DNA of 64,000 bases, taken from the NCBI RefSeq assembly GCF_030013595.1, contig NZ_CP122768.1, one strand, 5' to 3'. The DNA is from Escherichia coli. GTDB lineage: Bacteria > Pseudomonadota > Gammaproteobacteria > Enterobacterales > Enterobacteriaceae. Positions 27,801-30,736 of this stretch are shown piece after piece (the stretch's first letter is position 1; each line of letters opens with the position of its first letter). The position numbers were made by a program.

Positions 27801-30736
27801 GTTGTGTCTGGGAAAAGTGCAGGGCATTCGGGCTGGCAATATACACCGCGTCAATGGCATCGCTTTCTGCCATCGCTTCCAGCGACGTAAACAGATGCTC
27901 GACAGAAAAATCATTGGCAAAGTGCTGGGCCTGTTCAAGGCTGCGGGAATATACGGCGGTTAACTTGTATTTACCGCTCTCATGGGCGGCCTCGACGAAC
28001 TGGCGAGTGATCCAGTTCGTACCAATCACAGCGAAACGTATCATAACGCGTGGATACTCCATAAAGGGATTCTGCCGTCAATGTAGCACGCCTTTTTCAT
28101 CTTCGACGTGCGCAGATACGCATTATTTCTGCGCCGGACAGCCATGCTCACTAAACGGCCCAATCATGACCGATGGCCCGAGATATTTCGGCTGGCGATG
28201 GAGGATTTTTGCGTCAATCACCGCGCTGACTCTGGCGAGTTTCTCCCGTAACTGAGTATAAAAACCGTGCTTCATATTGAGGTCTGGCGCGTTAAAGCCG
28301 ATAGCGTCGATGCCGTACTGTTTTGCCAGCCAGATGGCGCGTTGGTTATGAAATTCTTGCGAAATAATGGTGATATGGTTTTCCCCAAACACCTTTTTGG
28401 CACGCACCACCGAATCAAGCGTTGAGAATCCGGCATAGTCGCAGAAGATCACTTTCGCCGGTACGCCTTTAGCGATCAAAGCCTGCTGCATACCTGAGGC
28501 TTCATCGTAATTTTTACGTCCGTTATCGCCACTTACCAGTAGCCATTTCACTTTTCCGGCGTGGTACAACGCTGCTGCAGTATCAATACGTCGGGTAAAG
28601 TAGCGATTACCCGGCCTCGCCCCCAGCAATAAACCCACGTTCCGCGCCGGAACGGCGTTGACATCGCTCCAGGTCAGTTGTTGGCTGGCGTTGACCATAA
28701 CGCGATCGGCAATAAAAATGGTTGCTCCTGCTATAAGCAGCAATAAACAGCCAATCTTAAGAGTCCGGCGAGAAAAACAAATACGGAGAAGAAGGCGGGC
28801 AAAGGCGCGCAGCATGGTCGTTATCCTTAACGAAAAGGGGGAGGTCGATTTTAGGCGCTAAAGGAAGAAAAGATAACGCCTGACATCATTTTCAGATTTT
28901 GTCCTGCCCAAGCGACAACTGCGTTAGCCACAGCCGGGTGTCGAACTCAAGCTGGTGGTACTGCGGCTCCATATGGCAGCACAATTGATAGAACGCTTTG
29001 TTATGCTCTTTCTCCTTCAGGTGCGCCAACTCGTGCACCACGATCATGCGCAAAAACGGTTCCGGCGCGTTGCGAAACACGGTAGCGACGCGGATCTCTG
29101 CTTTTGCTTTCAGCTTGCCGCCCTGCACACGCGAAACAGCGGTATGTAACCCGAGCGCGTTTTTTAGCACGTGGATCTTATTGTCATACATCACTTTATT
29201 GATCGGCGGGGCATTGCGCAGAAACTGATTTTTAAGATCTTGGGTATATTGCCAGAGGGCTTTATCGGTGGCGTAGTCGTGTGTTCCCGGATAACGTTTT
29301 GCCAGCACATCGCCCAGACGCTGTTCGTTAATCAGCGTTCGCACCTGGGAAAGTAGCTGGTCGGGATAACCCTGAAGATAAGTAAGATTGCTCATAACCG
29401 CCCACGAAAAAGAGAAAAAGGGTATACTCACGCACCCTTTTCAGGGGCAACGTCGAAATTTTATCATTCAGGAGGGCCGATGAGCCACTTAGACAACGGT
29501 TTCCGTTCACTGACACTACAACGTTTTCCGGCGACGGATGACGTTAACCCGCTACAGGCGTGGGAAGCGGCGGATGAGTATCTGCTGCAACAGTTGGACG
29601 ACACAGAGATCCGCGGCCCGGTGTTAATCCTGAATGATGCTTTTGGTGCGTTAAGCTGTGCGCTGGCGGAACATAAGCCCTACAGCATTGGTGACTCATA
29701 CATCAGTGAACTGGCCACGCGCGAGAATTTACGCCTCAACGGGATTGATGAGTCGAGCGTGAAGTTTCTCGACAGCACCGCCGACTACCCGCAACAGCCG
29801 GGTGTGGTGCTGATCAAAGTACCCAAAACACTGGCGTTGCTGGAACAACAACTGCGTGCGCTGCGCAAAGTCGTCACGCCGGATACACGTATTATTGCCG
29901 GTGCCAAAGCCCGTGACATCCACACTTCCACGCTGGAACTGTTCGAAAAAATGCTCGGCCCGACCACCACCACGCTGGCATGGAAGAAGGCACGCTTAAT
30001 TAACTGTACTTTCAACGAGCCGCCGCTGGCCGATGCGCCGCAGACCGTTAGCTGGAAACTGGAAGGTACTGACTGGACTATCCACAACCATGCGAATGTC
30101 TTCTCCCGCACCGGGCTGGATATTGGCGCGCGCTTCTTTATGCAGCATCTGCCAGAGAATCTCGAAGGTGAGATTGTCGATCTCGGTTGTGGTAATGGCG
30201 TTATTGGTCTGACGCTGCTTGATAAAAACCCGCAGGCGAAAGTGGTGTTTGTCGATGAATCGCCGATGGCGGTTGCTTCCAGCCGTTTGAACGTTGAAAC
30301 CAACATGCCAGAGGCGTTGGATCGCTGCGAGTTTATGATCAACAACGCGCTCTCCGGCGTGGAGCCTTTCCGCTTTAATGCTGTGCTCTGCAACCCGCCG
30401 TTTCATCAGCAACATGCGCTGACCGATAACGTCGCCTGGGAGATGTTCCACCACGCCCGCCGCTGTCTGAAAATCAACGGCGAGCTGTATATCGTTGCCA
30501 ACCGTCACCTGGATTACTTCCATAAACTGAAGAAGATTTTCGGCAACTGCACCACCATCGCCACGAATAATAAATTTGTGGTGCTGAAAGCAGTGAAGCT
30601 GGGGCGTCGTCGGTAAGATTGGCAGCTACCTGCCAGATAAGGCGTAAACGCCTTATCTGGCATACGTTCAGCACATTACCCCCAGGTCGGATAAGACGCG
30701 GCAAGCGTCGCATCCGGCACTTCAATGCACGATTTA

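Follow-up and report, generated by a model that had tools for sequence, protein, structure and literature searches.

A cassette-free rlmG-fadH junction in Escherichia coli that probably reflects loss of higBA through flanking REP repeats

It is already established that chromosomal type II toxin-antitoxin (TA) loci in Escherichia coli vary in presence between strains, keep a conserved location and decay. In K-12, the higBA system (ygjN-ygjM) lies between fadH and rlmG, a strain-variable locus (PMC2814082; PMC7232551). Complete higBA is found at this position in K-12 and HS, and an orphan higA in NRG857c and CFT073 (PMC7232551). A close parallel is ccdO157 at folA-apaH, where strains lacking ccdO157 have REP sequences according to the summary given in PMC7167474. 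The locus described here resembles ccdO157 in being a chromosomal type II TA site at a fixed intergenic position that is present, decayed or absent depending on the strain, but it involves another TA family and another locus. In addition, direct REP/BIME repeats bracket the higBA cassette, and its orthologues can be traced across Escherichia species. The 64-kb stretch of E. coli DNA analyzed here (hereafter the window) has the same chromosomal junction and the same flanking genes as the K-12 higBA system. Unlike K-12, and unlike the orphan-higA strains CFT073 and NRG857c, it contains neither gene and represents a third, fully empty state.

REP elements are imperfect palindromes of ∼35 nt with arms of the GCCGGAT.../...ATCCGGC type, and two oppositely oriented REPs with a short spacer between them make up a BIME. 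Typical properties of REPs further include binding by or action of IHF, gyrase, Pol I or RAYT and a stabilizing effect on mRNA 3' ends. REPs are also established join-points of deletions and duplications, as in the duplications of the Salmonella his region. The locus in the window has the defining REP palindromes as an inverted pair, situated at the 3' ends of convergent genes, and it is from the comparison of alleles that we infer a REP-mediated deletion here.

In the window, rlmG and fadH converge on a short spacer (Table 1), with their stop codons at 30614-16 and, on the complement, 30734-36. The RlmG reading frame was recognized in a profile search as NCBIfam equivalog NF011577 (887 bits, over residues 1-378), and the window's FadH shares 98.6% amino-acid identity with that of K-12. 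RefSeq labels both genes rlmG and fadH in strain HCP5S3_I2, which is 100% identical at the locus. Searches of the 64-kb window with K-12 HigB and HigA (tblastn) and with cassette DNA (blastn) returned only chance-level matches, and no cassette remnant was found in the spacer or elsewhere in the window. The arrangement that defines a HigBA type II TA system, higB (PF09907 HigB_toxin) directly 5' of higA (an HTH_3 antitoxin), is thus lacking from the window. Both MG1655 and TG1 have the order rlmG-higB-higA-fadH with an intergenic region of 1,055 bp, in agreement with the preliminary description, which had placed ygjN-ygjM between fadH and rlmG in K-12 and had found only 117 bp of REP sequence in their stead. 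The latter extent proved exact, and the REP sequence is an inverted pair. The same description had called the locus non-K-12-like, and with flanks that diverge from K-12 by 4-5% it clearly is so.

Table 1 Features of the rlmG-fadH junction in the window
Feature	Position	Strand	Description
rlmG (ygjO)	29480..30616	+	23S rRNA m2G1835 methyltransferase, 378 aa; left flank
rlmG-fadH spacer	30617..30733		117 bp; BIME, without higBA cassette
REP1	30631..30662	+	Perfect palindrome TGCCAGATAAGGCGT-AA-ACGCCTTATCTGGCA; 15-nt arms, 100% complementary
REP2	30685..30720	-	Opposite orientation to REP1; GGTCGGATAAGACGCGGCAAGCGTCGCATCCGGCAC; hairpin in fold
GCATCCGGCA	30710..30719	+	Only copy left of the short direct repeat that occurs on either side of higBA in occupied E. 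coli alleles
fadH	30734..32752	-	NADPH-dependent 2,4-dienoyl-CoA reductase, 672 aa; right flank

The lineage to which the window belongs is rare in the collection: over 14 kb (24000-38000), only 2 of 5,435 matching records reach 99% identity or more. This segment is about equally distant from K-12 (96.5% identity), O157 (96.3%), ST131 (96.1%) and SMS-3-5 (96.9%). Further differences lie nearby. The fadH-ygjK region (32753-34890) contains ∼1.7 kb of extra sequence, where K-12 has only 425 bp, and includes a minus-strand open reading frame of 452 aa (33239-34597) that had no Pfam or PADLOC match. The HCP5S3_I2 version of this reading frame is a 513-aa hypothetical protein (WP_064226086.1). Since HCP5S3_I2 is otherwise identical, the 1-base indel that the window shows over 14 kb may truncate the 452-aa frame. 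The extra segment was covered in 3 of 60 evenly sampled E. coli genomes and also occurs in DSM 103246 and Z1322HEC0005. For the adjacent alpha-glucosidase gene ygjK (∼34890-37241 in the window), the annotation of the 100%-identical HCP5S3_I2 gives a pseudogene interrupted by an internal stop. On the other side, the sstT-alx spacer (∼25195-25809) is ∼217 bp longer than in K-12 (615 bp vs 398 bp).

The 117-bp spacer is an ordinary BIME between convergent genes. REP1 and REP2 stand in opposite orientations 22 nt apart, and the spacer folds with a free energy of -53.6 kcal/mol (z = -6.3 relative to shuffled sequence). Motifs of both REPs recur in the window, REP1 as a related copy at 9890-9923 and REP2 as a second copy at 32883-32913; the number expected by chance is 0 in each case. 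The spacer also gave sub-threshold matches to the REP-derived Rfam family naRNA4, and its sequence matches a median of 2-3 places in each E. coli genome, among them an unrelated locus near eutG. Together, the palindromes, the strong fold, the recurring motifs, the naRNA4 matches and the several places per genome identify the spacer as a BIME: its arms are palindromic, it is extragenic and multicopy, and its two REPs form an inverted pair. The strict Stern-type (1984) REP consensus was not matched in the spacer at up to 3 mismatches because REP1 of this strain is a symmetric variant, and REP identity was set instead by the palindromes, the further copies and the naRNA4 matches. Other strains carry allelic versions of the REP, such as GCCGGATGCGGCGTAAACGCCTTATCCGGCCTAC. 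A pattern scan of the spacer found neither a promoter nor an intrinsic terminator, the latter because there is no T-run.

The junction was also compared with 5,426 complete E. coli genomes; because this collection is clinically biased, the shares that follow are not population frequencies. A query of 160 nt centered on the junction, at least 80% covered, identified 1,061 of the 5,426 genomes (∼19-20%) as empty like the window. Conversely, K-12 cassette DNA was present in 4,377 genomes and gave no match in 1,049. It was full length in 2,825 (∼52%) and partial in ∼1,552 (∼29%), where a 325-bp deletion that takes the promoter and approximately three quarters of higB has left an orphan higA. In all, ∼81% of the complete genomes carry at least higA. 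The rlmG-fadH junction in E. coli is a three-state polymorphism: full higB-higA, orphan higA and empty. Judged by its breakpoint, which was identical in 20 of 20 sampled rows and is also that of JL05 (L002), Nissle 1917 (L094), GPEC1042 (L095) and DSM 103246 (L108), the partial class is one allele. The 325-bp deletion sits on very different flank haplotypes, including that of the probiotic Nissle 1917, a pattern that implies an old deletion spread by recombination and a higA without its mapped promoter.

The empty class is itself heterogeneous. The 117-bp form was found in the window, FDAARGOS_1300, HD12481, AF57, H3, A1_181 and E69, and SCPM-O-B-8794 has a 116-bp variant of this form, in which REP2 is degenerate. 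A structurally distinct 110-bp form occurs in KKo009 and 1604D011, and may have arisen by another deletion or from a REP2 that diverged and lost 7 nt of its loop.

The occupied alleles show how the cassette is seated relative to the BIME. Alignment of the spacer to K-12 and JL05 places both REPs to the left of the cassette, which in occupied E. coli alleles starts right after the position equivalent to 30719 in window numbering. The cassette follows ...GCATCCGGCA and terminates in a short hairpin, GCCGGATGCG-TY-GCATCCGGC. Given this start, and given that the end hairpin carries GCATCCGGC, GCATCCGGC is directly repeated at both ends, and it was present at both cassette ends in every occupied E. 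coli allele examined. The bracketing unit is GCATCCGGC(A), and the repeats of present-day E. coli alleles measure 9-15 nt (GCGTYGCATCCGGCA). The E. albertii and E. whittamii cassettes have an entire BIME on either side in direct repeat, the left and right copies sharing ∼75 nt and ∼90 nt, respectively. The right-hand BIME of E. coli has collapsed to a chimeric hairpin that combines the left arm of REP1 with the right arm of REP2, a collapse that leaves GCGTYGCATCCGGC(A) as the repeat at both ends.

Outside E. coli, higBA occupies the same junction in E. whittamii, where HigB and HigA are 98% and 97% identical in amino-acid sequence to those of K-12, and in E. albertii, at loci where rlmG shares 98.8% identity with its type-strain counterpart. 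In Escherichia sp. MOD1-EC7003 the junction holds higA only. There, an AT-rich DUF1266 gene replaces higB and the left BIME and lies directly upstream of the intact orphan higA. The start of the same DUF1266 gene, cut by IS10 at a contig end, is present in the E. albertii type strain NBRC 107761 (coordinates for the two loci: L005, 5333-6130, and L004, 1636-1856). Replacement of higB by DUF1266 may represent a swap of the toxin with the antitoxin conserved. Occupied junctions were also found in Citrobacter amalonaticus, Scandinavium, Pseudocitrobacter faecalis, Citrobacter sp. 18056 and strain RIT691. A more distant homologue (60% identity) is located elsewhere in Buttiauxella, and plasmids carry HigB relatives of 59-71% identity, which points to a mobile family. 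Two further species-level GTDB representatives labeled E. coli, SCPM-O-B-8794 and E69, are empty. Within Escherichia, the sample covers species other than E. fergusonii, E. marmotae and E. ruysiae. Among non-Escherichia Enterobacteriaceae, in genera other than Salmonella, 71 species representatives carry both flanking genes. The cassette is absent from the junction in 68 of them, and the gap between rlmG and fadH in these has a median of 75 bp, with overlapping stop codons in 15. Some representatives have other contents or longer spacers, namely a DUF3289 and DUF943 gene pair at the junction of Enterobacter sp. kpr-6 (L056, 5297-6681) and rlmG-fadH spacers of 370-460 bp in L028, L029 and L058.

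The cassette diverges in proportion to its flanks, within E. coli as well as from one Escherichia species to another. Between K-12 and ST131 the cassette DNA differs by 1.7% and the flanks by ∼4%, and between K-12 and E. whittamii the corresponding values are 4.7% and 5.8-7.7%. Between K-12 and E. albertii, higB differs by 3.2% and higA by 7.2%, as compared to 5.6% for rlmG and 10.3% for fadH. An ancestrally empty site should hold an insert younger than its flanks and be free of it in close outgroups. The insert shows no such youth, and it is only in the distant genera (68 of 71) that the junction is free of it. Because the cassette sits at the same junction in other Escherichia and has diverged along with its flanks, it is most likely older than E. 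coli and, on the simplest view, was already at the junction in the Escherichia ancestor. The preliminary description had considered the junction in the window probably to be the empty ancestral site. Within Escherichia this is unsupported, given the cassette in E. albertii and E. whittamii and the higA in MOD1-EC7003; at the much deeper level of the family, emptiness does predominate, which means that the cassette must have arrived at some point.

The presence of the cassette in other Escherichia, its co-divergence with the flanks and the bracketing repeats suggest that the empty allele is probably a derived loss through those repeats. One or more precise deletions would have occurred between the direct REP/BIME copies that bracket the cassette, by recombination or by replication slippage between the repeats. 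A single step of this kind would remove toxin, antitoxin and promoter, leaving one intact BIME, which could then serve as the 3'-end hairpin of both convergent transcripts. The alleles have the structure that such a deletion predicts, with the repeats in occupied alleles and one copy left in the empty allele. When the deletion between the repeats was performed in silico on the O157 allele, it yielded a 117-nt spacer identical to that of the window at 114 of 117 positions, and the FDA1290 and GPEC1042 alleles each gave 113 of 117. Independent evidence that the cassette decays comes from the widespread higB-truncated allele (cf. PMC7232551).

Sequence immediately next to the junction links alleles of different states. 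The 103 nt from the rlmG stop to the junction are identical in the window, FDA1300 (both empty), FDA1290 (full) and GPEC1042 (truncated), and a second identical set is formed by H3 and HD12481 (empty) with JL05 (truncated). In neighbor-joining trees, whether built from rlmG or from the final 1.5 kb of fadH, empty alleles fall among full and truncated ones, and the locus is a recombination mosaic. On the right flank, each of the eight 117-bp-type empty alleles examined has the microhaplotype CAC-TTCAAnGCAC. E. albertii, O157 and a few truncated alleles carry it as well, and it is missing from most occupied E. coli alleles. Its sharing suggests that the empty allele may be one old lineage spread by recombination as opposed to many recent deletions, and the microhaplotype fits such a lineage as well as it fits recurrent deletion. 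Queries chimeric for the junction did not find a near-isogenic occupied relative of the window, the closest occupied alleles being 2-5% different in the flanks. The best matches, DSM 103246 and Z1322HEC0005, combine a truncated cassette with the right-flank microhaplotype of the window and differ from it by 4-5% beyond ∼400 nt from the junction.

Precise insertion into a BIME would produce the same scar as precise deletion between repeats, and the junction alone gives no direction. It is conceivable, though in our judgment unlikely, that the site in the window was never occupied, higBA having inserted within or beside the BIME of other lineages, and that the empty allele has survived since then or has been transferred between strains by homologous recombination. 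The clean BIME without cassette remnant, the emptiness of SCPM-O-B-8794 and E69 and of 68 of the 71 species representatives (with their median gap of 75 bp and 15 overlapping stops) and the plasmid-borne HigB relatives all agree with this idea, and the occurrence of the right-flank microhaplotype of the 117-bp alleles in E. albertii suggests that the allele may be old. However, with the cassette at the junction in E. albertii and E. whittamii, higA alone in a third Escherichia lineage, at least higA in ∼81% of complete E. coli genomes and cassette divergence proportional to that of the flanks, an empty allele would need to have persisted as a polymorphism across several speciation events. Moreover, on two haplotype backgrounds the empty BIME is identical to the left BIME of occupied alleles over 103 nt.

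The junction might alternatively be a hairpin-bounded exchange point, at which higBA or, in other species, DUF3289-DUF943 or DUF1266 cargo is gained and lost via directly repeated hairpins. We consider this improbable, given that REPs and terminators build up at gene 3' ends in any case; if true, it would offer a concrete, testable mechanism for the entry and exit of chromosomal TA systems at fixed sites. A related idea, an active gain-and-loss hotspot in which hairpin-bounded cassettes are moved by a REP-associated tyrosine transposase or by template switching and neither junction state is simply ancestral, is very improbable. It would account for the directly repeated hairpins of species-specific families that flank the cassette, which are BIMEs in Escherichia, CCCGGTACG...GACCGGG in C. 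amalonaticus and CCCTCTCCC...GGGAGAGGG in Pseudocitrobacter and RIT691. It would also accommodate the other cargo at the junction (DUF3289 with DUF943 in kpr-6; DUF1266 in MOD1-EC7003 and NBRC 107761), and REPs are known at another TA site, in a literature that calls the mechanisms of TA integration unknown (PMC7167474). Yet hairpins on both sides of an inserted operon need no special mechanism to explain them, as they collect at gene 3' ends in any case; no transposase, integrase or RAYT gene was found near the junction in the loci examined, and the co-divergence of cassette and flanks argues for long vertical residence and not for frequent movement. Finally, an assembly or sequencing artefact, to which a REP-repetitive spacer could in principle give rise by collapse across repeats in short-read assemblies, has a negligible probability and was rejected, since 1,061 independent complete genomes share the empty junction in several sequence variants and the cassette is unique sequence that would not collapse.

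Loss through the flanking repeats is thus the reading that we favor. As the third member to be expected in the series that runs from full higBA to orphan higA, the fully empty state is an ordinary strain difference. For typing and annotation, the strain carries a cassette-free allele of a well-known accessory TA locus, and the gene order of K-12 is not the norm of the species. For the dynamics of chromosomal TA systems, the locus offers three states, a cassette that is probably old across Escherichia and BIME repeats that would be able to explain its clean loss. It adds one more worked example of TA decay, like that of ccdO157, and leaves existing concepts unchanged.
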